Positions 47,437 to 63,180 of a stretch of 64,000 nucleotides of DNA are shown piece by piece (the first letter of the stretch is position 1; each line of letters starts with the position of its first letter). Origin of the DNA: Oscillochloris sp. (GTDB taxonomy: Bacteria > Chloroflexota > Chloroflexia > Chloroflexales > Chloroflexaceae); assembly GCA_012032775.1 (NCBI GenBank), contig JAAUQO010000002.1:4659-68658 (forward strand). The letters run 5' to 3'. A program made the position numbers and the translations under genes. The notes beneath the pieces were generated by a model. The model was not told the origin of the DNA. It saw only the letters and a list, made by a program, of their open reading frames with translations, and searched no databases.

Positions 47437-47592
47437 GATATGCCTCACCTACCCGGCGGCCCATACCGCCGCTCGCAGGTTGTACCGTCGAAAAGTCCAC
47501 GATGATACGGGGAAAGGCAGGAAAGGTTTATGCATGTTGCTCCGTCCTTCTTATGCGAACGACAACATCCCCATCACAGAAGGAGAACGATC

Positions 47593-50500
47593 GTGCGACA
47601 TACCCACCCCCTGGCAATGCTCGCTCTTTGTATGCTGTTGGTATTTACCGGCACAATGCCGGCAACTGCGCCGCGTGCCTATGCCGGCCCCGGCGACTCG
47701 CCGCCGCAGCGCAGTAGTGTGTATAACGGCAGCAGTCGCGTGCAATACACCTACCGCCCGGACTTCAACATTAGTGGTGCGATGACGATCGAGGCATGGG
47801 TGTACCGCGAGGATTCCGCCCGTTGCGAAACGATCCTCTCCAACAATTACGCCAACTCGTACTGGTTGGGTTTCTGCCCGCGCCCGCGTTTCTACCGCCT
47901 CGGCGGTTCGGCGATCGATGCAACCCGTGATGTGCCGGCCTATCAGTGGACGCATGTGGCGGTGAGCTACGACGGCGCCACGGTGCGCTTTTACATCGAC
48001 GGCGAAGCGGCCGGTTCGGCGGCCCTTACGGCGAGCGGCAGCGGCGCGGCAAATCCGCTCATCGTCGGCGGCGACAGTGGCGGCTTTTACTTCGACGGCG
48101 CCCTGGATGAGGTACGGCTCTGGACGACGGCGCGTACCCAGGATGCAATTCAGGCCGGGATGTTCGCCGAGATCCGCGCTGCCGACGGCCTGTTGGCCGC
48201 GTTCGGCAATGGCGGCAACCTGGAGGAGATCGCCGGGATCAGCGGCAGCGTCTCGGGAACTGTTGCCACGCAAGTGATCGGTATGCTGCCGAGCGATTTA
48301 ACGATCCCGCAACTGCCGATTGCGCCGACGATCGACGGGAGTGTGGCCGCCGCCAGCGAATATATCGGCGCCGAACGCATGGTGCTGCGCTACCGCGACG
48401 GCGAGACCCTGCGCGATATGCCCGCGTACCTGGGTTACGACGCCGACAATCTCTACATCGGCGTACGCTTCGACGACCCGGCCAGTATTGCCGTCGAAGA
48501 TACGAACGACTACATCGCGCTCATGCTCGATCCGAACGGTTCGCGTGACGAATTGGCACAAGCCGACGATGTCCAGATCCGGGTGCCGCTCTACGCAAGT
48601 GCGCCGAGTTGGCTGGTTGGCGACGGAGCCGGCGGTTGGGTTGCACCGGCCGCGCCGCCGGAGTCCGGCCCCAGTGGCCTGTGGGATGCCGCTATCGGCT
48701 CCTGTGCCTCGGAGTTCGCGCCGCTGTGCGTCGAGATCCGGGTGAGCCGGTCGCTCTTTGGGCCTTTAAGTGAGATCGACAATCTGGCATTAGGACATTT
48801 CCGGCTCGATCTTGGTGGCGGCGACGCGGATTATCTGGCGCCGGGACAGGCCCAGGTCGCCGCGCCGGCTACATGGTCGCCGGTGGTATATGGCGGCTTC
48901 AGCGCAACCCTGCCGCGCGCACGCTTCTATGGTTGGGTGCATGATGTTGCGCTGGGATTTACCCCGATCGCCGGGTATGATGTGCTGCTTTACTACGGCT
49001 CGACGCCACTGTATCGCACGACAACCGGCGCCGACGGCAGCTTCTTCTTCAATGTCCCGATCCCGACCGGCGCAACCCTGCGGATCGCCATCCCCGGCTG
49101 CACCGGCTGTCGCTACGAGACTGCCACCAGCGGGCGAATCGATCTGGCGCCGACCAACCTCGGCTCGCTGCAAGTCGATTTCCCCGGCTGCGACAGCGGA
49201 ACTTGTCGTTATGATACCGTGCAATTCCGCCTGTTGCAGCCGATCGGCGTGACCAGCATCACAGGTTACAGTGTTGATCGCGGTTCGCCGCCGGTGCGCC
49301 TGCGTAACGATAGCGACCTGCGTACACCCGCCACGCGGCTACGGATCAACGGCGTGAATCTGCACGAGGCGATGGATGTCTACCTGGCCCGCGACATCCT
49401 CAACTGCACCCAACGCCCGCCGCGCGACGAATGCGAACGGAGCATTGTCCCGGTGCTGGATCGGGCGCTCGACGGCACATGGATCGAGGTGGAAGTGCCT
49501 GAATTCGCGGCGCCGATCCCGTACGGCGGTTACTACTGGGGGATCTATGATCGCTGGGTGCGGCCCGGCAACTCGGGAATTGGTACTGCGCCCTGGATCT
49601 ACGGCGCTGATTTCAGCCTCGTGCCGCCGAGCTACCCCGAGTTGTACGGGTTCGGCTTCGAGAACGAGGACGACGGCGCCGATATCGACGAGTTCTTGTC
49701 GGTGTACGGCAACAACGCCTATGTCTGCATCGGCCTGAAGGTCGGCGACACCTGCGCCGGCGTACGCGCTCCCGACCCGCTCTACTGGGGAATCTGGTTC
49801 CCGGTGTTCCACATCTGGATCGACCAGGCCAATGGCAGTTGCGTCGGGATGGCCGCCACCAGCCTGTTGATGGCTCGCTCGCTGCTTGATCCTGAGCGGT
49901 ATGATGCAAACGTGTTGTATCCGGCTGGATTTACCACGATCGGTAAACCGAAACGCTGGGATTACGGCACCTTCGGGCCGGTCTTCCAGGCGCCCGCGCC
50001 CGCCAACAACTGGAGCGAGATTCGCCGCAATCACGGTGTGCAAACCAGTGCCGAATTTCTGTCGGCCAGCATCGACGGGATGATCGCTGGGCCGACTGCG
50101 GTATTGGCACAGGTACGATCGGCCCCAACCAACTATGTGTTGTGTATGTCGCCGGGGCTTGGTTCGGGCCATTGTGTGACACCATTTGGGGTTGAGGACA
50201 TCAGCCCGACGCAGACCAACATCAAGATCTACGACAACAACTTCCCGAACAATCCGAACCGGATCGTCACGATCGACCCGAGCGCCGATACATTTACCTT
50301 CGCGCGTAGCAGCGGCGACTGGAGCGGTCGGATGATCTACGCAATTCCGATCAATGTCTGGCAGCGCGGGCGTTCCATGCCGCTCGACATTCCCGGCATC
50401 GTCACAACCGCGATTTTCGGCGCGGCCGACGGCATCTACAGCACCTCCGACGGCGGGCGCTGGGGCTTCGAGGATGACGGAACTGCGGTTGAGAGTATCC

Positions 50501-51219
50501 CCGGCGCAATCAGTTTCTCGCCCCTCAGCCAGGGCGCCGCAGCCGGCCGGGCCGCAGTTCTGGGCTTGCCGACCGCTGCGCCGTCACCCGAGGCGGATAT
50601 TCGCACCCACGGCGGCGATTACCTGTTCTTCGCGATGCAAGACGGCGTGGTGCTGCAACTCGCAGTTGATGCTGCGACGGACGGCGAGCGTGACGCTGCG
50701 GCACTTGGTTACGACGGCGGGAGTTTGCGCTCGCTTACTTTTAGCCCGCAGAGCGAACGTAACGCAATCGAGCCGCGGGTGGGCATGGAGTTGGGTGAGC
50801 GGGCGCGTGTGCTGTTCCGCTGGCGTGGGCTGAATATGCCCGGCGGCAGCGGCGAGTTCACGGCCCTGCCCGAAGCCCGTGGTGCGGAGTTCAGCAATGA
50901 TACCGGTAGTGAGCTGAGCTACGAGATTGTGTTGGAAGTGATCGACGGTGAAAGCGGCACGGCAGCCAGCCGCACCTTCGGCCCGTTCACCGTCCCAAAT
51001 GGCGCAACCCATCGCATGGTTATCGCCGATTGGCCGGCGAGCACCCAGTTGCTTTCGACGATCGATCTGAATGGCGACGGCACCCCGGAGAGTAGTGCGC
51101 CGGTCACAGGCACTATCTGCACGCCGCAGGATACCGACGGCGACGGTGCGCCCGATCTGTGTATTGCCGCTGCGCCTGCTGTGAACAACACGATCTACCT
51201 ACCGTTGCTGGCCAAATAG
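47593..51219 (+). CDS. Very large secreted multidomain protein (LamG/ConA-like lectin, CBM9-like, carboxypeptidase-regulatory-like and possible papain-like domains, Asp-rich Ca-binding-like repeats)
   Basis: GTG 47593 with GAAGGAGA SD and signal peptide. LamG block ...AMTIEAWVYRED...WTHVAVSYDGATVRFYIDGE...FDGALDEVRLWTTAR. Later DLNGDGTPE...DTDGDGAPD. The protein ends ...NNTIYLPLLAK. Confidence 0.8.
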   Translation: MRHTHPLAMLALCMLLVFTGTMPATAPRAYAGPGDSPPQRSSVYNGSSRVQYTYRPDFNISGAMTIEAWVYREDSARCETILSNNYANSYWLGFCPRPRFYRLGGSAIDATRDVPAYQWTHVAVSYDGATVRFYIDGEAAGSAALTASGSGAANPLIVGGDSGGFYFDGALDEVRLWTTARTQDAIQAGMFAEIRAADGLLAAFGNGGNLEEIAGISGSVSGTVATQVIGMLPSDLTIPQLPIAPTIDGSVAAASEYIGAERMVLRYRDGETLRDMPAYLGYDADNLYIGVRFDDPASIAVEDTNDYIALMLDPNGSRDELAQADDVQIRVPLYASAPSWLVGDGAGGWVAPAAPPESGPSGLWDAAIGSCASEFAPLCVEIRVSRSLFGPLSEIDNLALGHFRLDLGGGDADYLAPGQAQVAAPATWSPVVYGGFSATLPRARFYGWVHDVALGFTPIAGYDVLLYYGSTPLYRTTTGADGSFFFNVPIPTGATLRIAIPGCTGCRYETATSGRIDLAPTNLGSLQVDFPGCDSGTCRYDTVQFRLLQPIGVTSITGYSVDRGSPPVRLRNDSDLRTPATRLRINGVNLHEAMDVYLARDILNCTQRPPRDECERSIVPVLDRALDGTWIEVEVPEFAAPIPYGGYYWGIYDRWVRPGNSGIGTAPWIYGADFSLVPPSYPELYGFGFENEDDGADIDEFLSVYGNNAYVCIGLKVGDTCAGVRAPDPLYWGIWFPVFHIWIDQANGSCVGMAATSLLMARSLLDPERYDANVLYPAGFTTIGKPKRWDYGTFGPVFQAPAPANNWSEIRRNHGVQTSAEFLSASIDGMIAGPTAVLAQVRSAPTNYVLCMSPGLGSGHCVTPFGVEDISPTQTNIKIYDNNFPNNPNRIVTIDPSADTFTFARSSGDWSGRMIYAIPINVWQRGRSMPLDIPGIVTTAIFGAADGIYSTSDGGRWGFEDDGTAVESIPGAISFSPLSQGAAAGRAAVLGLPTAAPSPEADIRTHGGDYLFFAMQDGVVLQLAVDAATDGERDAAALGYDGGSLRSLTFSPQSERNAIEPRVGMELGERARVLFRWRGLNMPGGSGEFTALPEARGAEFSNDTGSELSYEIVLEVIDGESGTAASRTFGPFTVPNGATHRMVIADWPASTQLLSTIDLNGDGTPESSAPVTGTICTPQDTDGDGAPDLCIAAAPAVNNTIYLPLLAK

Positions 51220-51277: not shown

Positions 51278-51564
51278 AATGATCGTCTTTACCGTATTTA
51301 TAATTGAACATATGTTCGTATGGTATACTTACCCTGAATCCATTCAAGCAACCAATGGATAGATCACCGAACCAATACGATCCACTCGGTTATGGTTTCG
51401 CGGTTCTTACCGTAGGCACCGACAAAAATGACATCGCCGTCCATATCATGGCTCGGTTCGAAGGAAACGATCTGGAAGCGATCATCAACAGCTTGGATCG
51501 GCGGACAGGTCAGCCCGGCATCTGCGAGGATGAGCATAAAGTGTATGAAGCTGCGAGGTGGAGC

Positions 51565-54305
51565 ATGACGTTTGTGAGTCCGCTCACGATCGAGCCGGCG
51601 ACATTCACCGATGAGTTGCAGTTCGTGATGGATTGCTTGCGCGAGGTGTTGCACGATGTTGGTGAGCCGGAACTCGCCCGCGTGCTGCCATGGAATGATG
51701 GTGATACGTCGCCGCAGCTCACTGCGGTCTCGCCTGAGCGGCTGGTACAGGCACTCTCGATCGCGTTTCAGTTGCTCGCCATGGTTGAACAGCGGGCGGC
51801 GGTACAATACCGGCGTAATCTTGAAACACGTCAGGGTCTGCCGGCGGTGCCGGCACTCTGGGGCGATACCCTACAGCAATTGCAAACATGTGGCCTCAAA
51901 GACCGTGAAATTGCCGCCGCCCTGCCTGAGATGCAAGTCGAGATTGTGTTGACCGCCCATCCAACCGAGGCCAAGCGTGCGACGGTGTTGGAGCATCATC
52001 GGGCGATGTACCTTATATTGGTGCGCCGGGCCGATCCCCGTTGGACACCATACGAGCAACAGGCGATCCGCCGTGAGATGCTGGCCCGCCTGACGACACT
52101 CTGGTGCACCGGCGAAATCTTTCTTGATAAGCCCGATATTGCCTCTGAACGGCGAAACATTATTCATTACCTGCGCTCGGTCTTCCCGGATGTGCTCACC
52201 TTGTTTGATGAGCGCTTGCGCCAGGCCTGGGCCGCCGCGCAGTTCGATCCCTCTTTGCTTGCCGATCCGGCCCAACTGCCGCAGATCTACTTTGGAACAT
52301 GGGTCGGCGGCGATCGGGACGGGCATCCGTTTGTGACCGCCGAGGTAACGCGGGAGACATTCGCTGCGTTGCGCTTGCAGGCATTACGCCTGCTTGAAGA
52401 TCAGTTGCGCGAGCTGGCGCGTTTCCTGAGCCTATCGGATCAGTTGCAATCGCCGCCGCCGCCGTTACTCACCCGGATCAGTGAGTCCGCGATCAGGCTT
52501 GGGAGTGTCGGGGCTGTGGCAATTGAGCGAAATCCGAACGAACCATGGCGTCAGTGGTTAAATATGATGTTGGCCCGCTTGCCGCTGCCGGAAAATCAAA
52601 CCGCCCACCACTACACCAGTGTCGCCGAACTCAGCGCCGATCTCGAGGTGCTTGCCGCAGGGTTGGAAACCATCGGGGCCAAAATCCTCGCCGAACAAAC
52701 GGTGCATCCGGCGCTGCGCAGTGTACGCACCTTCGGATTTCATCTGGCGACGCTTGATATTCGTCAGAACAGCCGCGTCCATGATCTGGCGCTGAGCCAG
52801 TTACTTGCCGCCGCCGGCTTCACCGAGCACGATGTCCTGGCATGGGATGAGCCGCGTCGCCTGGTGTTACTGGAGCAAGAGTTGGTTTCGCCACGGCCTT
52901 TTACTCGTGCGGAAGACGGGATTGGCCCGGAAGCCGACATGGTCTTGAGCAGCTATCGTACGCTCGTGGCTGAGTTGCGTGCCCATGGGCCGGACGGCAT
53001 CGGTGGATTGATCGTCAGTATGACCCGTAGCGTCGCCGATCTGCTGGCGGTCTACCTTTTTGCCCGTGAGGTCGGATTGCTGATGGATACGCCCGCAGGC
53101 CCGGCTTGTCCGCTCACGGTGGTGCCGTTGTTCGAGACGATCGATGATCTGGAACGCAGCCCGCAGATTCTGGCCGCGTTTCTCGATCACCCATTCACCA
53201 GGCGTAGTTTGGAAGCGCAACGCAGCTTGCGTGGCGGGCGCGATCTGGTGCAGCAGGTGATGGTAGGTTACAGCGACAGTAACAAGGACGGCGGCCTGGT
53301 TGCGAGTTTGTGGGCGCTTTATCGGGCGCAGGCGGCCCTGGCTGAAGTAGGTCGGGCGCGGGGTGTGCGGGTGCGCTTCTTTCACGGCCGCGGCGGTACG
53401 ATCAGTCGTGGCGCCGGGCCGATCCATCGCTTTCTGAAAGCGCTGCCCGCCGGCGCGGTGGGTGGTGATGTGCGTCTGACCGAGCAAGGTGAGACGATCG
53501 CCCAGAAGTATGCCAATCGGGTGACGGCCGGCTATAACCTGGAATTGCTGCTTTCCGGCGTAACACGGGCGGCTCTGTTGGAGCGCCACGTTTCCAACAT
53601 GCCCCACGAACTTGAGCCGGCGATGGATCAGCTTGCCGCCTGGAGTCGGACTGCCTACACTGAACTCCTCACAGCCGACGGATTCTTGCCATTCTTTCGC
53701 CAGGCCACCCCGGTCGATGCCCTGGAAGAGAGCCGGATCGGATCACGCCCGGCTCGGCGCACCGGTCAGGCGACATTAGCCGACTTACGGGCGATTCCCT
53801 GGGTGTTTAGTTGGAGCCAATCGCGCTTTTTTCTCTCCGGCTGGTATGGCGTCGGCACGGCACTGGCGCAACTTCAACAGCGCGATGCGGAAAGATTTGC
53901 AGCATTAGGACAACACCTGATTACCTGGGCGCCGTTGCACTATATTCTGAGTAATGCCGCCACCAGTGTGGCGATCGCGACCGCGAGATTATGGAGTGGT
54001 ATGCCGCCCTGGTGGATGATCCGGCGGTGCGACAGGCCATACTCCAGCGCATTCTCGTGGAGTACGAGCGCACGCAACAGATGCTGGAACTGGTGTATGG
54101 TGCGCCATTGGCCGAGCGACGGCCGAATGTGCAGGCGATGGTGCAGGTGCGTGCGCCGGGTTTGCGTGTATTGCACCGCCAGCAGGTCTCGTTGCTGCGA
54201 GCCTGGCGCACCCGGCGTGCCCGCGGCGACAATGCAGCCGATCTTTTGCCGCAATTGTTACTCACGATCAACGCAATCGCCGGTGGCCTCGGATCAACCG
54301 GGTAA
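51565..54305 (+). CDS. ppc: Phosphoenolpyruvate carboxylase (apparent 1-nt deletion ~53979)
   Basis: ORF 51304..54456 loses PEPC similarity after ...NAATSVAIA. ORF 53991..54305 supplies the true C-terminus (...DREIMEWYAALV...LLLTINAIAGGLGSTG). Conserved blocks VLTAHPTE, GYSDSNKDGG, FHGRGGTISRGAGP. Preferred start is ATG 51565 (GAGG 6 nt upstream). An in-frame upstream ATG at 51355 would add 70 aa. Confidence 0.9.
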
Positions 54306-54326
54306 GCTGCGACGCGCGTTGTTTGC

Positions 54327-55326
54327 TTACGCCTTGCGTGCGGCAAGTTGTTCCAGCAATCGGCAGTACTCCACCGCTTGCACACTCCACTTGATCCGGT
54401 CGTACACCTGGGTTGCGTTACGGGCCAGGGTTGCGCGGCGCTCCGGCTGCCGGTAGAGACTCAGTGCAATACGGGCCAACTCTTCCGGATCGTTGTTGTC
54501 GAAAAAGGCGATGCACTTGTCGTCGAAGTAATCTTCGAGCGCGGTCGAGCGGCTGATGATCGCCGGCTTATCGATCGAGATATACTCGAACATTTTGGTG
54601 GTATGTACCCAGCGGGTGGCCGCATCCTGACGCAGTGTAACCAGGCCGACATCGGCGGTTTGCAGCGCCGCCGCAAGCTCGGCATATGGCGCGAAGCCAC
54701 GAAAGCGTACGCTGCCGTTCAGCCCGAGATCTTCCGCCAGGGCTTTGAGTGGCTCCAGGGCTGTGCCTTTGCCGAAAATCTCCAACTGCGCGTCCGGAAT
54801 CTCGCGGCGCAGGATCGCCATTGCGCGCACAGCGGTGTCGATCCCGTAACGATCCTCAATTGAGCCGTGGGTGATCAGATGAAATGAGCCATTCGACGAT
54901 CGCACAGGGTTATCGACGCCGGTGATGAAACGATCGTGCTCCGGTGTATTCAGGGTTACCGTGAATGTTTCGGCCGGCGCCCCGCGCGCCACAAAGACAC
55001 GGATCATCGCTTTGTTGCAGGTAACGGCGTAATTCGGCGGCCGAACGCTCGATCCCGAAGCGCTGCTGCAAGGCCTGGATCGCCGGCCCGCTTTCGGCGA
55101 TCTCGGCATAGGTATTCTTGAGCCGAACGGCATATTCCAGCAGTCCATAATCAAGATCGGCCGAACGGGGTGAGACACGCATGGTGGCGGTGGCGCTATA
55201 GTTTGGCGTGAGCAGCCATGCGCCTGCGGCGGCAACCGCAATTGCGGCGATCACCGTGAACACGATAATCCAACGCCGGCGTAGCAAGATGTCAACATAA
55301 TGTTGTAGATGCATAGGTTGTCGCAT
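54327..55326 (-). pseudogene. Chimeric remnant: Wzz-type chain-length-determinant N-terminus joined to the C-terminal half of a GT4 glycosyltransferase (also frameshifted ~55030-55042)
   Basis: ORF 54910..55416 gives MHLQHYVDILLRRRWIIVFTVIAAIAVAAAGAWLLTPNYSATATMRV... (Wzz N-terminus plus TM). ORF 54327..55241 continues ...AMIRVFVARGAPAE, then the GT4 C-domain (FHLITHGSIEDRYGIDTAVRAMAIL...LEIFGKG...VRFRGF...). The GT4 N-domain and the Wzz C-terminal part are absent. Confidence 0.5.
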
Positions 55327-55478
55327 TCGCTTGCGACTGGTTGCAGCGGTGAGAGGGATGTTTGAATCGGGGTGCCGCCCGCAAGCAGCCGGATCCTGAC
55401 AGCATGTTTCGTCCACGCAGCCCTAATAATCCATACAATCGGCGGGGAGTGCCGGTTCAGGACATTGCGTAACTGCGG

Positions 55479-55576
55479 ATATAGCGATCCTATCCGGGTT
55501 GTGCAGTCGGTTCTGCGTACTGTTACCGCAGTTCCTGGTTCTGGGTTTTCGGTTCTGGTAGGATTGCTATAGCAGG
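55479..55576 (+). repeat. Copy C of the TIR-bounded heptamer-array element
   Basis: ATATAGCGATCCTATCCGGGTTGTGCAGTCGGTTCTGCG...GGTTCTGGTAGGATTGCTATAGCAGG. Lies in the divergent region between the Wzz/GT remnant and the ECF sigma gene. Confidence 0.85.
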
Positions 55577-55997
55577 AAACAAGGGCATCATGGCCGGGAT
55601 GTTCCTGCTGTCGATGATTGGCAAGACGCGTTCCAAGAGTTGTGCTATCGACACCGCAATCAGGACGTTATGAAATTGGAGGTTGAGTTGAAATGTAAAC
55701 CGGACGAATCTGATAGAGGGTAACTCCACAGCTCAAAAATACCATAGCACGGGCGCGATAGCTTGATCAAGCCAACTACACGCTATCGATAATGAATACT
55801 TTGTTATATAATTCGCACGCTCTACCCACTCGGTGCTGCTTTTGAATGCTAAGAAACAACTTTTAGCCCTATGGATCGTACCTGGTGAATTTTGGTGTCC
55901 GGCCTTTGGCTACTGTCCGGTTTCCAAGGCGATGTTGAAAACAAAGATTGATTCCCTTGTATGTTACAATCCAGTTGTGAGCGATCATGCTGATGAT

Positions 55998-56585
55998 ATG
56001 CAACTCTATGCCGCCTGCGGCGATGAGGGTAGTCTACGCCAGGTAGATGCCTTCGAGCAGTTGTGGGCATTCTTGTACCGTCGCGCATGGGCGATGGTGC
56101 ATGATCGCCGCAGCGCTGAGCAACTCGCCGCCGATTGTACCCAGGTGGCGCTGATCAAAATCCATCGCAGCTATGGGCAATGCCGTGAGCCGGAGCGCTT
56201 TCGGGCCTGGGCGGCCCAGATTATGCGGCGCACGGTGATCGATGAGCTACGCCGGCCTGAACATCGGCCGCAAGTCGATCTTGAGGTTGCCGCCGCGCTC
56301 CCGTCCGATAATCCGTCACCGGAAGCGATCCTGGCTGATGCCGATCTTGCGCGTGTGCTCCGTGCAGCGATCACGGGCCACGGCCTGAGTGATCGCTCGC
56401 AGCGGGTGGTGATCGGACGCTTTTTCGCCGAGCAAAGCGATGAAGTACTTGCCGCTGCCGAACAAGCCCTGGGTGCCGCGGATCTGCGGCCAAGCCACAT
56501 CCAGGTTACGCGGGCCAAAAATCTGGCTAAACTGCGCGCCGATCCGGCGCTGCTGGCGCAATTGCAGGATCTCCTTGCCGGTTAA
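55998..56585 (+). CDS. ECF-type sigma-70 family sigma factor
   Basis: About 195 aa from ATG 55998. Region 2 (...FEQLWAFLYRRAWAMV...DCTQVALIKIHRSY) and region 4 (LSDRSQRVVIGRFFAEQSDEVLAAA...VTRAKNLAKLR). Confidence 0.8.
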   Translation: MQLYAACGDEGSLRQVDAFEQLWAFLYRRAWAMVHDRRSAEQLAADCTQVALIKIHRSYGQCREPERFRAWAAQIMRRTVIDELRRPEHRPQVDLEVAAALPSDNPSPEAILADADLARVLRAAITGHGLSDRSQRVVIGRFFAEQSDEVLAAAEQALGAADLRPSHIQVTRAKNLAKLRADPALLAQLQDLLAG

Positions 56586-56720
56586 GGAAAGGTTTTCCCA
56601 CAGCCCCGCGTCATTATAGTAGCAGATGCGCGGTCGCCTGTTCAGAAGGCCGGTGTACACAGTCGCTTCGCCAGGCGGATGAGCCGCCGCTATGAACCGA
56701 ACCACAGTAAGGATACGGCT

Positions 56721-57467
56721 ATGGCCGAAGGAGAGCACAACCGGGCAGCGCAGCGTTTGGCGGAGATCCTGACGGTCGGCCATGATCCCGCCGCCTGCAT
56801 GGCGTGCCTGGACAATCTGGAATTGTATGTCGCCGCGCAACTCGCCGGCGATGATTACCGCGCCCGCTTCCCAATCGCGGCCGATCATCTTGATCGTTGC
56901 GTCGAGTGTGCCGAAGCCTACGCGCTCACCTACGACGATCTGCTTGAAGCGCTGCAACCGGCGCCGGATCTGCCGTTGCCGACGCCTGATTTTAGTTTTC
57001 TTGAACCGTATGCCGCCGGTGCATTAAGCCCCGCTGCGTTGCGTCGCAATCGAACGACCAGCTTGCCGAAGCTGATCGCCGCCGCCCTTACACCCCTGGC
57101 AAACGGCCTGCGCTTGCAGCTTTCTCAGGCCATTCTGGCGGCCCTTATGCCGCCGGTGCCGTTAGCGCTCCGAGATGCCGCCGAGCAGGCGCCCCTCACG
57201 GAGCTTTTGATCCCTGCGCCCGCTCCCGGGATCGCGCGCCTGGAACTACGGATTTATGCCGATCTGGTTGATCCGGCGCGGCGTGATCTGCGGGTGCGCG
57301 TCGAGCTACCCGATCGCGACTGGCCGGATCTGGCCGGGATTGGGTGTACGCTGCACCTCTCGACAGGTCCGTATCAGATCATCAGCGACCCATGGGGCGA
57401 GGCGGTCGTTACCGGCATTCGGGCCGAGGAACTGGATAACCTTGCGCTGGAAATACGGCGCCCGTAG
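56721..57467 (+). CDS. Putative zinc-binding (ZAS-type, HxxxCxxC) anti-sigma factor, apparently cytoplasmic
   Basis: AAGGA SD before ATG 56721. CMAC ... LYVAAQL ... HLDRCVEC (nt 56886-56909) matches the zf-HC2 anti-sigma signature. It lies directly downstream of the ECF sigma gene. Confidence 0.65.
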   Translation: MAEGEHNRAAQRLAEILTVGHDPAACMACLDNLELYVAAQLAGDDYRARFPIAADHLDRCVECAEAYALTYDDLLEALQPAPDLPLPTPDFSFLEPYAAGALSPAALRRNRTTSLPKLIAAALTPLANGLRLQLSQAILAALMPPVPLALRDAAEQAPLTELLIPAPAPGIARLELRIYADLVDPARRDLRVRVELPDRDWPDLAGIGCTLHLSTGPYQIISDPWGEAVVTGIRAEELDNLALEIRRP

Positions 57468-57505
57468 CGCAAAAAAACAGCTTGTTCCAGCCTGCCGCAG
57501 GCAGA

Positions 57506-59917
57506 TCATCCCGTTACGTCGGCGGCTCGCCCGAGTGATTGCCTAACGCGTGTAATCTGATAGGCGGCCCAGAACTCAGGCGCGCTGAAGGGTTGGCTGC
57601 CGTCGGCTCTGGTATACGCTCGCAAGGCTAGTTGGGCCGTGCGTAACATCGCCGCCGGGTAGGGTTGATCGCCGGCTGCTTCGAGTTCGCGGTAAAAATA
57701 CTCCATCAATAAGCGGGCCGATTCATCCTCGACCGGCCATTGGGTCACCAGAACTGCCTGTGCGCCGGCGCTTAGAAAGGCTCGCACCAACCCGATCGGT
57801 TCATCGCCGCGCAGCACCCGGCTCATCCCGCTGCGGCAGGCGCTCAATGTAACCAGTTCGGCGTGTAAGCGTGGCCCGGCCAGCACATCAGCCGCCGTAA
57901 GGCGCTGTCCATCGCCCAGCAGCAGCGCCGATTCAAGCGGTTCATCGAGCCGGAATTCGCCGTGGCATGCCAGGTGTAAGCGCCGATAGTGCGGTGCTTC
58001 GGCCAGTAATCGCGCTGCGGCGTCGGCCCCCGGCGCAAACAGGTCGCCGCCGCAAATCCGTACCACCACCTGGGCCTCGACAGCGGTATGGCGCAAGTCG
58101 CCGCTGTCGTCGCCAAGCGCCAGACACATGCGCGCTGCGCTCGCGCTGGGTTTGGGCGAGCGCAGTAACATCGTGACACTCGGCGTATAACTCAGTTCGA
58201 GCGCCTGCTCGATCAGTGCTGTGCCGTCGGGATGGTGCAGCGCGACAAAGGGTAATTGGTGCAAGGGGCCGTGCGGCACGATCGTGACCCGCTCGGCGCT
58301 GCGCAGCAGATCGCTTACCGGGCCGAACAGGGCCTCGGAGCAACGCCGCAAAATCGCCGGCCGTAAAAAGCGCCTTCCGTCGCTCAGGTATGCCGAGGTT
58401 CCGTGGAGTATATTCGGATCAAGTGGACAGATGTGGGCGCGTAATCCGCTGTGGGTAAGTGCGAAAAGCACAATTCCGGCCGGCACCGCCACCGCTTCAC
58501 GGACGCCGCTTGCCTCGGGTGGAATCGCTGCCAGCAGCGCTCGTTCCGGCCCGGCCACACCTGTTGTAAAGTAGGCCAGTACCAATTCGCCCGGCTGCAG
58601 GGCCGCACATGCGCTCGCCGCATCGATCGGCATAACCGGTTCGGCAACTGCGCCGGCCCGCCGCGCCAGCAGATCGGCAAAGGCGCGCGCGCGCGCACGC
58701 TCGGCATAGTGAAAGGCCGTGGCCGGATCATCGTCGGCAAGGGCGGACAGCACACCCTCTTCGAAAATTGTCTGCCAGCGCCCCATCAACCCGATCAAGA
58801 GTCCCTGGTCGGCCAGGGGCGCCCGATGGGCCTCGACGGCTGCGGCCGCTTCAGCCAGATCAGCGCGCGCTGCGGCATGATCGCCCAGCCGGCGCCGCGC
58901 ATGTGCTACGCGGTAACGCAACATCGGCGCAATATCACTTCGCCCGATGTTGGCGGCCAGTTCCAGTGCCGCACCATACTCCAGCAGCGCCGCCTGCTCG
59001 TAGCCCTGCGCCTGTTGGGCCAGTCCACGATGCAGCAGCGTATCCACCACATACACCCGCGTCTCCATCAGGTCGAGCGCAACGGCAAAACTGCCTAACG
59101 CATCGGCAACTGCGCCGCTCAGCAGTTGCACCTCGCCGATATTGTTGCGCACCCGGCCCAGCAGATCGGCGGCATCGGCGGCGGTGAAGACCAGTGCCGC
59201 CGCTTCGGATGCCGCCAGCGACTCGTTCCAGCGTCCCAGGTCACGATACACCAGGCCCAATTCCATACGGCTCAACGCACCGCGATACTCGTCGCCCAGG
59301 GCTGCAAAGCGTTCGGCGGCGGCCAGAAATGCTTGCTCGGCAGCGGCATAATCCTGTAATTCATAGGCTAAAATACCGCTGTTCAGTAATGCCCTGGCAT
59401 GGCGCCCGGTATCGCCGCGCCGCTGCCAGATCGTCATACTCGCGTCGTACCAGGCGCGGGCCTGCTGATAATCGCCTTGCATACGGGCGAATACCGCGCC
59501 GCTGTTCAAGGCGCGCCCACGCACCCCTTCGTCCAGATCAGGTTCGTTCAGCAAGGCGGCAAATCCGCTGCGGGCCTCGGCCAGTTGATCGCGCAGCCCG
59601 GCGCCGAGCGCACGGTAAAAACGGAGCAACTGACGGTGTCGGGCCAGATACAATTGCGCAAGCGGAACTTGCTGCACCAGTTCAGTCAATTCCGTCGGCG
59701 CCTGCTGGATCGTCAGTTCAAGTGTTTGTTCAAGTAGTTCGACATAACGCTGCTCAGACGCAGGATCGTCGCTCAGTAAGTGGCTCGCCAGGATGGGTAA
59801 GATTGCCGCCAGTGTTGTCCGGCGGCGCGCCGGCTCCAGATTCACCAACGCCGAATCATCACCGGCGGCGAGTGTCTGGGCAACCCTGTGTAATAGCTGG
59901 TCTGCGTGATCGTTCAT
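57506..59917 (-). CDS. TPR-repeat protein with C-terminal CHAT (caspase-fold) protease domain
   Basis: 803 aa with multiple TPR-like units in the N-terminal two thirds. C-terminal CHAT with His and Cys motifs (RLHLACHGEF ... ELVTLSACRSGMS ... AFLSAGAQAVLVTQWPV). Confidence 0.85.
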   Translation of the reverse strand: MNDHADQLLHRVAQTLAAGDDSALVNLEPARRRTTLAAILPILASHLLSDDPASEQRYVELLEQTLELTIQQAPTELTELVQQVPLAQLYLARHRQLLRFYRALGAGLRDQLAEARSGFAALLNEPDLDEGVRGRALNSGAVFARMQGDYQQARAWYDASMTIWQRRGDTGRHARALLNSGILAYELQDYAAAEQAFLAAAERFAALGDEYRGALSRMELGLVYRDLGRWNESLAASEAAALVFTAADAADLLGRVRNNIGEVQLLSGAVADALGSFAVALDLMETRVYVVDTLLHRGLAQQAQGYEQAALLEYGAALELAANIGRSDIAPMLRYRVAHARRRLGDHAAARADLAEAAAAVEAHRAPLADQGLLIGLMGRWQTIFEEGVLSALADDDPATAFHYAERARARAFADLLARRAGAVAEPVMPIDAASACAALQPGELVLAYFTTGVAGPERALLAAIPPEASGVREAVAVPAGIVLFALTHSGLRAHICPLDPNILHGTSAYLSDGRRFLRPAILRRCSEALFGPVSDLLRSAERVTIVPHGPLHQLPFVALHHPDGTALIEQALELSYTPSVTMLLRSPKPSASAARMCLALGDDSGDLRHTAVEAQVVVRICGGDLFAPGADAAARLLAEAPHYRRLHLACHGEFRLDEPLESALLLGDGQRLTAADVLAGPRLHAELVTLSACRSGMSRVLRGDEPIGLVRAFLSAGAQAVLVTQWPVEDESARLLMEYFYRELEAAGDQPYPAAMLRTAQLALRAYTRADGSQPFSAPEFWAAYQITRVRQSLGRAADVTG

Positions 59918-60082
59918 ACTACCCCGGCAATCAGGAAAGGTCTGCTCGCTTTAGCTCGTCATGGGGTTGGGAGTGTAGGTATAGCCGGTTTTTAAATACA
60001 TGTCAAACGACCCTGATAGACCCTGTATCCTGTATCCGTACCCTTAGCCTGTACCTGCATCCGCAATCTGAAGGAGATATGC

Positions 60083-62131
60083 ATGCTCCGTTCGCTCTTG
60101 TTGATGCTGATTCTGGTGGCGCCGCTGGCGTTCATCGCACCTACCGCAGCACAGCCGGATGGGCCGCCGATCGCGATCGATCTCACGGTATCATTAGAAT
60201 GGGAGCCGGGCGAACTCACGCTTGCCGAAATACTGCCGGCCGATTGTGCTTCACGCAGCAACACCGCCTACAGCGAAGATCTACGCCAGGGGTTACGTGC
60301 GGCAGCCGCCTATTTGTACAGTTACACCCGCGGCACGATCACACTCGGCAATGTGCAGATCTTCAGTGGCGGCGCCCAGTGGGAGCAGGCCGATATTCGC
60401 GTGCTGGCGAGTAGCGGCTACCGGCCGAGTGCATTCGTTGGCGGCAGTGTCGCTACCCCGACTCTGCGCGAGGTTACGCCCGGTCGAGCCGTGATCTACT
60501 ACCCCGGCCCAACGCTGCTCGGCCGGCTCTGGGATGGTAATCCCGAGCGGCGTGGCGCCCGTTGCGGCCCATGGTCGTCGCCGTCCGGCTGGCGCACGAT
60601 CGGCCACGAATTGGCCCACCAGGTGCTGTTTCTCTACGATCAGTATGCCACACTGGAAGGCGCACCCCGGCGCTGTAGCTTCACCGGTTTGGCGCGCAAT
60701 GTACGCCCGAATCTGCTGGGCGGCGCCGATACGCTGATGTCCTACCATTACAGCGCCGATGAATTGTTGCTTACTTCCCCGGCCGGAAATCCGGCCTGTG
60801 CCGGTACCGCGCACGAGCACATCTACGCCGATCGCAGTGAGTGGCAGGCGCTGCGCACCGTATTCCCGTCTCTGCCGGAAACCCCGCCGCCACCTCCAGG
60901 TTCCGATCTGCCGGAACTGCTCGGCGAGATCGATCGGCTTGGACTGGCCGATGTGCAGTTCGCCACTGCGCCACCGGATCGCGATACAACGGCGCCATTG
61001 GTACTCACTGCACCTGCGCCCGCGCCCGCCACGCCGGTCTACGCCGAAGTGTATCTGGTCGAGCGCGACCCGAATAATGGCTTGCAGCAGATTATCGGTC
61101 AGGGTTGGGCGTTGCCCGGCGAATCCATTGCCCCGCCGCTGCTGGGAATCGCGCCGCAGAATGCCAGCCGGGCGGTCGCATTTGTCGAAGATGTTTCGGG
61201 CGGCATGCGCTACGCAAGCCCGCCGAGTGATAGCGGTGCCGGCATCGAGCCTGCAACGGCCGCCGTCAATCTCGGCCTCAGCGCAAGCACCTGGCGTCCG
61301 CAGATCCGGATTATCCCCGAACTCCGGCCGACACTGGTGCTGAGCCAGGATGTGCGGGCAACCGAGGTTGCTGCGCTCCGGGTGGAATTGCAGGATTGCA
61401 ACCGCATGACGAAGAACGTCGAGTTTACGTACTGCCCGGCCGGCGGCAGATGCAGCGGCCCCGCCCTTGTTACCGCCGACGGGGACAATATACTGCGCTA
61501 CACCTTCTACTTCCCGCTGACAAACGGCGCGGCGCCGGCAGCCAGTGTCCGTGGCTATATCCACGCCCGTGAAACGAGTCGTGGTGAAGAGGCGGTGGTC
61601 TGGTATCAAATCGGCGGCGGTGTGGGGCCGGCCCACGGCGATGCCCATGCACCACTGGTAGACGGCCTGTTGAATACCGATCTTGCGCCGGCAACACCCG
61701 GCCCCGCGCGTGATTCGCGGTTGCTCCACAGCCCTACCGCAGTTTGTACGCAATTGCCGGTTACTTCAGGAGTAACGATCTTAGGCAGTCCGTTCAATGT
61801 CGAGCCGGTTGTCGCGACCGAGCAGCAAAGCCGCAGTTGGGGCAGCGATCCGGCTGATCCGCCGCTCAGTATCAGAATGGGCTACACGCCCGATCTTCTG
61901 GCGCGCCTGGGGGTGAATGAGGAAGATCTGGTGTTGTTGCGTTTGAACGCCGATAATCCGCAATTCCCGCCGTTTTGGGAACTGGTCTCGCCGTTGCAAC
62001 TTGCCGGACACGATCGCGAGCTTGATTGGCTGGCGCTGAACGCAATTCCATTTCGCGGCGCAGGTGCGATCGTGGCCCTTGGTTACCGCAATACACACCG
62101 GCTGGGCTTGCCGTTGCTGGCGCAGCCCTGA
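60083..62131 (+). CDS. Secreted putative zinc metalloprotease (HEXXH) with large C-terminal region
   Basis: AAGGAG SD. Signal peptide MLRSLLLMLILVAPLAFIAPTAAQP. Motif WRTIGHELAHQVLFLYDQY. The protein ends ...HRLGLPLLAQP. Confidence 0.7.
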   Translation: MLRSLLLMLILVAPLAFIAPTAAQPDGPPIAIDLTVSLEWEPGELTLAEILPADCASRSNTAYSEDLRQGLRAAAAYLYSYTRGTITLGNVQIFSGGAQWEQADIRVLASSGYRPSAFVGGSVATPTLREVTPGRAVIYYPGPTLLGRLWDGNPERRGARCGPWSSPSGWRTIGHELAHQVLFLYDQYATLEGAPRRCSFTGLARNVRPNLLGGADTLMSYHYSADELLLTSPAGNPACAGTAHEHIYADRSEWQALRTVFPSLPETPPPPPGSDLPELLGEIDRLGLADVQFATAPPDRDTTAPLVLTAPAPAPATPVYAEVYLVERDPNNGLQQIIGQGWALPGESIAPPLLGIAPQNASRAVAFVEDVSGGMRYASPPSDSGAGIEPATAAVNLGLSASTWRPQIRIIPELRPTLVLSQDVRATEVAALRVELQDCNRMTKNVEFTYCPAGGRCSGPALVTADGDNILRYTFYFPLTNGAAPAASVRGYIHARETSRGEEAVVWYQIGGGVGPAHGDAHAPLVDGLLNTDLAPATPGPARDSRLLHSPTAVCTQLPVTSGVTILGSPFNVEPVVATEQQSRSWGSDPADPPLSIRMGYTPDLLARLGVNEEDLVLLRLNADNPQFPPFWELVSPLQLAGHDRELDWLALNAIPFRGAGAIVALGYRNTHRLGLPLLAQP

Positions 62132-62403: not shown

Positions 62404-62515
62404 AATCTTGTGGTCTTACGATAGCCGCTCCAACCGCCTGTTCGATCAACCTGCGGGTGGATGTTGGGTGGATCCGGGCTCATACTGCATCAGTTCTGCG
62501 CCGCATTCGTCCCGG

Positions 62516-62545
62516 TTGACCATGCCTTGCCGCGCGTGCTATACT
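62516..62545 (+). promoter_or_regulatory. Promoter TTGACC-18-TATACT upstream of the ANTAR regulator gene
   Basis: TTGACC at 62516-62521, TATACT at 62540-62545, ~55 nt before ATG 62605. Confidence 0.55.
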
Positions 62546-62604
62546 GCGGTGCATATGTCGCCTGTGCCGAATTGGCGCTAACGTTTGAAAGAGTGAGGTT
62601 TGCC

Positions 62605-63180
62605 ATGGCGCAGCCGCGTCTGGTAATTGCGGACGATGAGTCGATCATCCGCATGAATTTGAAAGAAACGCTCGTAGGTCTGGGCTACCTTGTGGTAGGC
62701 GAGGCCGGCGATGGCGTATCGGTGATAAATCTGGCTCGTGAGTTGCGGCCTGATCTGGTGTTGATGGATATCAAAATGCCCAAGCTCGACGGTATCCAGG
62801 CGGCTAAAATTCTCACCGAGGAGAAGATCGCGCCGGTGCTGCTGCTGACCGCATATTCCGATCGGGATCTGGTTGAGCGGGCCAAAGAGGCCGGCGTAGT
62901 CAATTATGTGGTCAAGCCATTCCGCGAGGCCGAGTTGCTGCCGGCGATTGAAATTGCGATGGCCCGCTATCAGGAATTCCTGGAGATGGATACCGCAATC
63001 TCCGATCTGAAGGAGACACTCGATACGCGTAAGTTGGTTGAGCGCGCCAAGGGCATCTTGATGGACACGCAAGGTCTTAAAGAGGCCGAAGCCTTCCGCA
63101 AGATCCAACAACTGTCGATGAATACCCGGAAATCGATGAAGGAGATCGCGCAGGCGATCTTGTTGGCAAACGAGATCTAG
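62605..63180 (+). CDS. ANTAR-domain response regulator (REC + ANTAR, AmiR/PdtaR-like RNA-binding antiterminator)
   Basis: MAQPRLVIADDESIIRMNLKE...DLVLMDIKMPKLDG...VKPF (REC), then ...LDTRKLVERAKGILMDTQGLKEAEAFRKIQQLSMNTRKSMKEIAQAIL (ANTAR). Confidence 0.9.
   Translation: MAQPRLVIADDESIIRMNLKETLVGLGYLVVGEAGDGVSVINLARELRPDLVLMDIKMPKLDGIQAAKILTEEKIAPVLLLTAYSDRDLVERAKEAGVVNYVVKPFREAELLPAIEIAMARYQEFLEMDTAISDLKETLDTRKLVERAKGILMDTQGLKEAEAFRKIQQLSMNTRKSMKEIAQAILLANEI

Follow-up and report, generated by a model that had tools for sequence, protein, structure and literature searches.

A conserved TPR-CHAT, zinc anti-sigma-like and ECF sigma gene cassette of Chloroflexota as a possible protease-gated switch without CRISPR

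The DNA analysed here is a 64-kilobase (kb) stretch (the window) from a metagenome-assembled genome of Oscillochloris sp., which belongs to the Chloroflexota. It carries a cassette of four genes coding for a sigma factor of the extracytoplasmic function (ECF) type, a small soluble two-domain protein that is a probable anti-sigma factor, a convergent caspase-like protease with tetratricopeptide repeats (TPR-CHAT) and a divergent secreted protein with a HEXXH motif. The cassette is conserved among Chloroflexota, and the genes for the small protein and the HEXXH protein share a predicted ECF-type promoter. We propose tentatively, with doubt slightly outweighing confidence, that the cassette is a protease-gated switch in which the small protein holds the sigma factor, the TPR-CHAT protein cleaves the small protein and the sigma factor drives the expression of secreted proteins.

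Conservation and composition of the cassette

The sigma factor gene (55998..56585, + strand, 195 amino acids, aa) is followed after 135 nucleotides (nt) by the gene for the small protein (56721..57467, + strand, 248 aa). The stop codon of the small gene lies 38 nt from the 3′ end of the convergent TPR-CHAT gene (57506..59917, − strand, 803 aa). The gene for the secreted HEXXH protein (60083..62131, + strand, 682 aa) is divergent from the CHAT gene. All four genes had been listed in a first-pass annotation of the sequence, and their coordinates and motifs were borne out throughout.

Related loci were taken from the neighbourhoods of homologues of the small protein, from a search with the small-protein alignment in one genome of each species and from the neighbourhoods of sigma and HEXXH homologues. 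They were analysed by tblastn and hmmsearch, and the counts given below refer to 19 distinct loci with enough flanking DNA. Sigma factor, small protein and convergent TPR-CHAT protein are encoded next to each other in 16 of the 19, with gene order and orientation kept, and the small gene and the CHAT gene frequently overlap at their 3′ ends. The divergent HEXXH gene was confirmed in 12 of these 16 cassette loci. Three of the other four end at most about 550 nt from the CHAT start (one of them, L012, inside the CHAT gene), and the fourth, L002, extends no more than about 460 nt past the position estimated for the CHAT start. The hosts belong to the Chloroflexaceae, the Herpetosiphonaceae, other Chloroflexales, the Promineifilaceae and the Anaerolineae, and thus to the classes Chloroflexia and Anaerolineae; one locus (L034, LGKP01000005.1) comes from the cultured Herpetosiphon geysericola. 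The flanking genes are unrelated between the cassette loci. Since 16 of 19 loci with different flanks show this order and orientation, the clustering of the four genes is not due to chance, and the synteny across related genomes on which the first-pass annotation had made its proposal depend was found across the Chloroflexota.

The sigma protein matches the Pfam model Sigma70_r2 (E = 1e-9; 38.5 bits against a cut-off of 24) and the sigma70-ECF model TIGR02937 (59.2 bits against a cut-off of 42.9), the latter covering residues 17-153. The Pfam model for region 4 gave no match in this protein. With these profiles above threshold it is, by sequence, an ECF (group IV) sigma-70 factor. Its family comprises at least 120 clusters of proteins of about 200 aa with 46-65% identity.

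The small gene was always located 3′ of the sigma gene in the loci examined. Its product carries the potential zinc ligands C26xxC29 and H56LDRC60VEC63 (nt 56886-56909). H56, C60 and C63 do not vary among 16 close homologues, C26 and C29 hardly do, and the ligands are kept in 84-96 of 105 family members. Exhaustive HMMER searches gave larger families than a first word-indexed search; the small-protein family has 126 representative clusters at E ≤ 1e-30 and 540 at E ≤ 1e-10. As described in the first-pass annotation, the protein has no transmembrane segment (the highest 19-residue Kyte-Doolittle mean is 1.47). AlphaFold2, run with the family alignment, gave a predicted local distance difference test (pLDDT) score of 86 for the full protein and of 90 for the N-domain alone. 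In the model, residues 1-78 form a helical N-domain, which is predicted to be a helical bundle, residues 79-103 a low-confidence, disordered linker, and residues 104-248 two helices and an immunoglobulin (Ig)-like beta-sandwich with the motifs WPDLAG and TDxWG. The best-kept short motif of the family, P-x-P-D-[LF]-S-F-L, lies in the linker (residues 87-94, nt 56979-57002), with F93 found in 100 and L94 in 101 of the 105 members.

Comparison with the anti-sigma factor RsiW, whose sequence was checked to be identical to PDB 5WUQ chain C beforehand, yielded an ungapped alignment of 40 columns with hhalign (P = 4e-4, probability 34%). It pairs C29/H56/C60/C63 with C3/H30/C34/C37 of RsiW, and the spacing from cysteine to histidine is identical (27 residues). 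The sole recurrent Pfam match in the family is zf-HC2, which was found in 7 of 105 members at E ≤ 0.01 (best E = 1.6e-5); the window protein itself gave no match at the family thresholds of Pfam or NCBIfam. In Solirubrobacterales, short homologues of 80 aa correspond to the N-domain, and the adjacent upstream open reading frame (ORF) matches the sigma profile in 11 of 15 loci. With the full model, Foldseek returned merely generic Ig-like beta-sandwiches for the C-domain. Altogether, the small protein is probably an anti-sigma factor of the zinc-binding type. The first-pass annotation had assigned it to the zinc anti-sigma (ZAS) proteins; what stands of this assignment is the ligand pattern with the spacing of RsiW and the constant position after the sigma gene, and the profile and fold comparisons contributed no more than moderate evidence.

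The family is variable beyond the N-domain. One member carries a Peptidase_M14 carboxypeptidase domain (E = 7e-17), another matches CarboxypepD_reg, and P0297 (479 aa) and P0300 (376 aa) have the N-domain and the linker in common and differ in their C-terminal parts. A further arrangement was observed in L018 (14-7075), a locus of a metagenome-assembled Anaerolineaceae genome. Genes for an NB-ARC ATPase, for a TPR protein and for a sigma factor of greater length (275 aa) are present together with a tandem pair of ZAS-like genes, and the D-[LF]-S-F-L linker motif is conserved in both of the latter. Next comes a gene for a polytopic membrane protein with HEVAH and weak matches to M48/M56. This locus suggests that the anti-sigma N-module also occurs together with sensors and proteases of other kinds. 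A "CHAT" profile match in L018 was considered as a second CHAT association and rejected, as it corresponds to TPR repeats beside the NB-ARC ATPase.

The TPR-CHAT protein matches the CHAT domain (PF12770, E = 6.6e-55) at residues 523-788 and TPR_12 (E = 8e-13), with TPR repeats at about residues 136-345. The motifs LACHGEF (residues 649-655) and LSACRSG (residues 691-697) contain the predicted catalytic dyad of His652 (nt 57962-57964) and Cys694 (nt 57836-57838). Both residues are invariant in 15 of 15 aligned orthologues, which confirms that the dyad the first-pass annotation had called intact-looking is conserved, and both align with the catalytic histidine and cysteine of the solved Csx29 structures. 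A phmmer comparison with these structures gave E = 2e-5, and the best alignment of the CHAT domain was with Csx29. Neither a signal peptide nor a membrane helix was found in the protein. Because of the invariant dyad and the missing export signals, it should be a catalytically competent cytoplasmic caspase-like protease.

The HEXXH protein has a signal peptide with a hydrophobic N-terminus (Kyte-Doolittle 2.41) and the motif HELAH at residues 175-179. Invariant in its family are H175, E176, H179, D186, Y188, M219, Y223 and seven cysteines. D186 is located seven residues after H179, not six as in the HEXXHXXGXXH/D motif, and M219-x-Y, compared with a metzincin Met-turn, is invariant. The 42 clusters of the family are without Pfam domains save for an occasional CBM96, and the window protein had no Pfam, NCBIfam or PDB sequence-profile match. 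The distant member of Herpetosiphon geysericola bears the UniRef name "Peptidase M43", which is the sole pointer to M43. The protein is possibly a metzincin-like metalloprotease.

A shared promoter motif and the predicted regulon

For each of the four genes, all pairs of a 5-mer and a 4-mer at a distance of 15-19 nt were enumerated within the upstream 220 nt across the loci. A single bipartite element, GGAAAG-N17-CGTC, stood out from this unbiased enumeration. For the small gene it was present in the upstream region of 13 of 17 loci and for the HEXXH gene in that of 8 of 11; for the sigma gene and for the CHAT gene the count was 0 of 13 each. The spacer is 17 nt long in 18 of 20 instances. By its sequence the element is of textbook ECF promoter shape, for which a GGAAC-like −35 and a CGT-containing −10 element at 16-17 nt are typical, and the cassette sigma factor would be its obvious reader, as the motif is inherited together with the sigma gene.

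A position weight matrix was built from the motif sites of the training loci. It recovers sites upstream of the small and the HEXXH genes in nearly all loci and showed no promoter match upstream of the sigma gene in any locus and none upstream of the CHAT gene. In three loci that had not been used for training (L035, L037 and L038) the matrix scored 20-31 bits, with a site at the HEXXH gene in L035 and L038. In 185 kb of Solirubrobacterales control loci two matches of 14 bits were obtained. On both strands of the window exactly three matches of at least 14 bits were found (starting at 56586, 59934 and 47520), all of them upstream of genes and in the right orientation; shuffled sequence yielded about 0.3 matches at the 14-bit threshold.

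The predicted promoter of the small gene (56586..56612, + strand, GGAAAG, 17-nt spacer, CGTC) scores 36 bits, and its −35 element starts directly after the TAA stop codon of the sigma gene. The predicted promoter of the HEXXH gene (59934..59960, + strand, 28.8 bits) has the same elements and spacing and lies between the CHAT and the HEXXH gene. The first-pass annotation had suggested a search for an ECF-type −35/−10 pair shared by the sigma gene at 55998 and the HEXXH gene at 60083. Such a pair was found at the HEXXH gene, which has the site at 59934, and not at the sigma gene. Since the HEXXH gene has the same ECF-type promoter as the small gene, it seems to be no bystander and is a probable output of the switch. 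A scan of positions 55200-60200 for sigma-70 promoters and terminators gave nothing informative.

The third match (47520..47546, + strand, 24.1 bits) is located at a gene for a secreted LamG-domain protein (47617..51219, + strand, 1200 aa, Laminin_G_3 E = 2.8e-27, hydrophobic N-terminus). The long ORF has its first ATG at 47530, within this site; about 70 nt 3′ of the site is a methionine codon at 47617, with which a signal-peptide-like sequence begins (MLALCMLLVFTG...). As the ATG at 47530 falls inside the predicted promoter, the gene probably starts at 47617. The LamG protein is a candidate for a further member of the regulon. Additional promoter sites in other loci are located upstream of S8 subtilases with an I9 propeptide (L008 and L009), a repeat protein with a twin-arginine translocation (Tat) signal (L005), a CBM96/FTP protein (L013, where the site is weak), an NB-ARC/LysM protein (L016) and unannotated proteins (L038). 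Judging from the motif, the regulon might thus consist mainly of secreted hydrolases and large exported proteins.

A common C-terminal tail, [YWF]-L-P-[LM]-[LVI]-x-[RK], was observed on unrelated large secreted proteins, with no membrane helix after it. It is present in the HEXXH family (62099-62131 in the window), in the LamG protein ("IYLPLLAK", 51187-51219) and in a BACON_2 protein encoded beside the sigma gene in L003 (3151-6777, − strand, "LYLPMLSR"). In Chloroflexota, tails of this YLPLLAK type may serve as a C-terminal signal for sorting or secretion that has not been described before.

According to Pfam, the large ORFs of the window are ordinary chromosomal genes, among them genes for glutamate synthase, PAS kinases, phosphoenolpyruvate (PEP) carboxylase and polysaccharide synthesis. 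An ANTAR-type response regulator is encoded just 3′ of the HEXXH gene (62461-63180, + strand), and in the Herpetosiphon geysericola locus a stand-alone receiver-domain protein is encoded just 5′ of the sigma gene (4274-4741 of L034, − strand); the promoter motif was found at neither of the two genes. The PEP carboxylase ORF (51304-54456, + strand) seems to be frameshifted near its 3′ end. The last approximately 150 residues of the long frame are Arg/Cys-rich nonsense, and another frame (53991-54305, + strand) carries on the PEP carboxylase-like sequence and ends with "...NAIAGGLGSTG". Either a pseudogene or a faulty assembly of the metagenome-derived genome could account for this.

Proposed mechanism and alternative explanations

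In the proposed switch the ECF sigma factor would be held inactive by the neighbouring soluble protein via its N-terminal zinc-binding helical domain; gene context and the ligand motif suggest this binding. The TPR-CHAT protein, expressed independently of the GGAAAG-N17-CGTC promoter, would be the input, and its TPR array might sense an intracellular cue. The His652/Cys694 centre would then cleave the anti-sigma factor in the linker or in the C-terminal domain and release the sigma factor, similar to the action of Csx29 on Csx30. We infer this cleavage from linkage and analogy: the protease step is proposed because of the tight, conserved and often overlapping convergent linkage and because of the precedents Csx29-Csx30 and DdvA. 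The free sigma factor would bind GGAAAG-N17-CGTC and transcribe the gene for the secreted HEXXH metalloprotease-like protein. Depending on the genome, its targets would also include genes for further secreted proteins, in the window that of the LamG protein and in other loci those of S8 subtilases along with other exported proteins. As the ECF promoter is found at the small gene and not at the sigma gene, the sigma factor would transcribe the gene for its anti-sigma factor and not its own, so that the switch might be reset by negative feedback without positive autoregulation.

Several points weigh against this reading. The link between the CHAT protein and the anti-sigma factor consists of gene adjacency. 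Loci L010, L014 and L037 keep the sigma gene and the small gene with its promoter, and no CHAT or HEXXH gene was found within 8 kb of them. The protease is therefore not obligatorily adjacent, and CHAT and HEXXH genes travel as a pair; they are a sub-module that is usually, not always, attached to the pair of sigma and small gene. For the anti-sigma assignment, the window protein did not match zf-HC2 even at E = 10, and PDB sequence-profile searches with three alignments of the small protein returned no anti-sigma factor. Foldseek searches with the N-domain model listed RsiW (5WUQ, template modelling score 0.41-0.45) and RslA (3HUG, 26% identity) among 17 matches, which were not significant (E 5.6-6.8). 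The linker motif resembles the segment "APADFTANV" of RsiW, which follows helix III at the start of helix IV, and it may be a sigma-2-binding helix IV rather than a cleavage site. The motif P-x-P-D-L-S-F-L was therefore downgraded as a candidate cleavage site and is not used as evidence for cleavage. Finally, thiol oxidation can switch zinc anti-sigma factors with no protease involved.

In one alternative, the sigma factor and the small protein are by themselves a zinc anti-sigma switch that senses redox state or thiols, comparable to RsrA-SigR or ChrR-SigE. The sigma factor would be freed by oxidation or by a signal sensed at the C-terminal beta-sandwich, and the TPR-CHAT protein would have a separate task tied to the HEXXH protein, for example in the quality control of exported proteins. 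The three loci with sigma gene, small gene and promoter and without an adjacent CHAT gene are the main support for this explanation, and the joint gain or loss of CHAT and HEXXH genes fits it as well. The combination of CxxC and HxxxCxxC resembles redox-sensitive zinc anti-sigma factors. ChrR is reported (Campbell and co-workers, 2007) to have a beta-rich sensor domain C-terminal to a soluble anti-sigma domain, and the layout of the small protein would be the same. However, the convergent linkage of the CHAT gene and the small gene is tight, often with overlap, and is kept in 16 of 19 loci from two classes. Furthermore, zinc ligands have been lost in about 10% of the family members, which is hard to square with an obligatory redox sensor, and a cytoplasmic CHAT protein outside the ECF promoter suits an input more than an output. 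We regard a purely redox-controlled pair as unlikely.

The TPR-CHAT protein might also act on the sigma factor itself or in a non-proteolytic manner, with the TPR part as a scaffold or as a partner-switching anti-anti-sigma factor that titrates the small protein. The model for this is ECF54, for which a genomic context with CHAT, subtilase and carboxypeptidase genes has been described and control by a protease proposed (PMC8999054). The subtilases under the same promoter in L008 and L009 and the small-protein family member with the Peptidase_M14 domain are reminiscent of this context. Unlike ECF54, the cassette contains a recognisable anti-sigma candidate, the invariant catalytic dyad speaks for proteolysis, and nothing points to a cleavage motif in the sigma protein. 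Such a direct or scaffolding role appears very improbable.

The cassette might alternatively serve against phages or in abortive infection, as a module of the craspase, gasdermin or CHAT type in which the CHAT protein senses infection and the sigma factor starts a defensive programme. CHAT proteases and protease-released ECF sigma factors do recur in defence (Csx29, SAVED-CHAT, CalpL and DdvA), and BrxC/D-like ATPases are encoded near L010. PADLOC reported a weak BovA match for the CHAT domain (E = 9e-7) and no match for the other three cassette proteins, and because it gave merely this weak match we set aside the interpretation as a known defence system. Moreover, the flanks are housekeeping genes that differ in every locus, and the cassette appears to be chromosomal and vertically inherited across families. 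The predicted regulon is made up of secreted hydrolases and large exported proteins and includes no nucleases or membrane-disrupting effectors. A function in defence is thus very unlikely in our view.

Comparison with known systems

The first-pass annotation had compared the cassette with type III-E CRISPR (clustered regularly interspaced short palindromic repeats) systems, in which Csx29 cleaves Csx30 and thereby relieves the inhibition of CASP-sigma (PMC10028731). The likeness would lie in two separate proteins encoded at one locus with an ECF sigma factor, namely a cytoplasmic TPR-CHAT protein and a soluble two-domain inhibitor for the sigma factor, and in a relief of the sigma factor by cleavage of the inhibitor, which for the cassette is proposed. 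As the first-pass annotation had stated, the window is free of cas genes and CRISPR arrays: a tandem-repeat scan of the 64 kb detected no array, a Pfam scan of the large ORFs no cas genes, and an Rfam scan one tRNA and no other RNA family. No cas genes or arrays were present in the neighbourhoods of the related loci either, so that cas7-11, which would have pointed to a type III-E locus, is missing from the window and from every related locus; csx31 is also missing from the window. The CHAT protein is not an orthologue of Csx29, since it reaches 53.5 bits with the NCBIfam Csx29 model NF041237 against a cut-off of 300, with the CHAT domain alone covered. The small protein is zinc-anti-sigma-like and has no sequence or fold similarity to Csx30, to which the first-pass annotation had suggested comparing it: Csx30 was not matched by PDB sequence profile at E up to 10 and did not occur among the top 50 Foldseek matches listed. 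Without cas7-11, without an array, without a Csx29 orthologue and without a Csx30 homologue the cassette is, by its gene content, not a type III-E locus. The part of the comparison that holds is the clustering of the functional parts without CRISPR; the relationship to Csx29 and Csx30 as orthologue or homologue does not. As there is no Cas7-11 target RNA to act as activator, the TPR array must sense something else.

The ECF54 group of Actinobacteria is reminiscent by its genomic context, with CHAT and subtilase genes near an ECF sigma gene. It belongs to another phylum and was described with CHAT, subtilase and carboxypeptidase genes, without an anti-sigma factor and with proposed proteolytic control (PMC8999054); a later survey of ECF54 highlighted a 4Fe-4S protein (PMC7826278). 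ChrR-SigE (ECF11) and RsrA-SigR (ECF12) have a soluble anti-sigma factor with HxxxCxxC, like the probable one of the cassette. In contrast to the cassette, no dedicated caspase-like protease gene is known to adjoin these systems. Their operons are autoregulated from upstream of the sigma gene, whereas here the anti-sigma gene has a predicted ECF promoter and the sigma gene has none.

Release of ECF sigma factors under protease control is well established for membrane-bound anti-sigma factors, for instance with DegS/RseP and RseA. It has recently been found in CRISPR-linked systems as well, namely Csx29-Csx30, CalpL-CalpT and DdvA. Full-text literature searches yielded no description of a stand-alone cassette of a cytoplasmic TPR-CHAT protein, a zinc anti-sigma factor and an ECF sigma factor. 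It could be that the free-standing cytoplasmic TPR-CHAT protein both senses the signal and serves as the dedicated protease of a soluble zinc-finger anti-sigma factor. The resulting caspase/anti-sigma/ECF cascade would be the first to be independent of both CRISPR and the membrane, with secreted hydrolases bearing the LPL-x-x-R/K tail as its output in filamentous, partly predatory Chloroflexota. We consider this wider interpretation a real possibility that is on balance doubtful. If it is true, proteolysis of the caspase type would permit a programme of feeding or predation outside the cell and not immunity, and CHAT proteases would be general signalling inputs for bacterial transcription, beyond their role as immune accessories. 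The cassette would then also give a handle on the large and nearly uncharacterised pool of bacterial TPR-CHAT proteins, and it defines two sizeable families without current annotation, the anti-sigma-like proteins and the secreted HEXXH proteins. It is also amenable to experiments, since promoter, regulon and feedback architecture have been predicted, a motif is at hand that may serve in binding or cleavage, and one host, Herpetosiphon geysericola, is in culture.

A nearer precedent than Csx29-Csx30 is DdvA of Myxococcus xanthus, the counterpart of the sigma factor DdvS; it unites a CHCC zinc anti-sigma domain, a membrane helix and a periplasmic TPR-CHAT part in one polypeptide (PDB 8ROT/8RW5/8RLZ; PMC11506125). 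Its TPR-CHAT part is proposed to cut in trans and to start the release of the sigma factor, which is completed by RseP (PMC11506125). The regulon of DdvS consists of CBASS and a type III-B CRISPR system, and DdvA-like proteins were reported in Myxococcota and one Comamonas species alone (PMC11506125). A PDB sequence search with the CHAT protein of the window did not match DdvA. Both systems pair an ECF sigma factor with a CHCC-type zinc anti-sigma domain, which is probable for the cassette, both have a TPR-CHAT His-Cys dyad and a proposed proteolytic release of the sigma factor, and both are independent of type III-E CRISPR. In the cassette, the two functions are assigned to separate cytoplasmic proteins, encoded on opposite strands and neither of them with a membrane helix, the predicted regulon consists of secreted hydrolases, and the host phylum is Chloroflexota. 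The protease-gated ECF switch is thus of a known kind, and the cassette looks like a new, CRISPR-independent and all-cytoplasmic variant of it.

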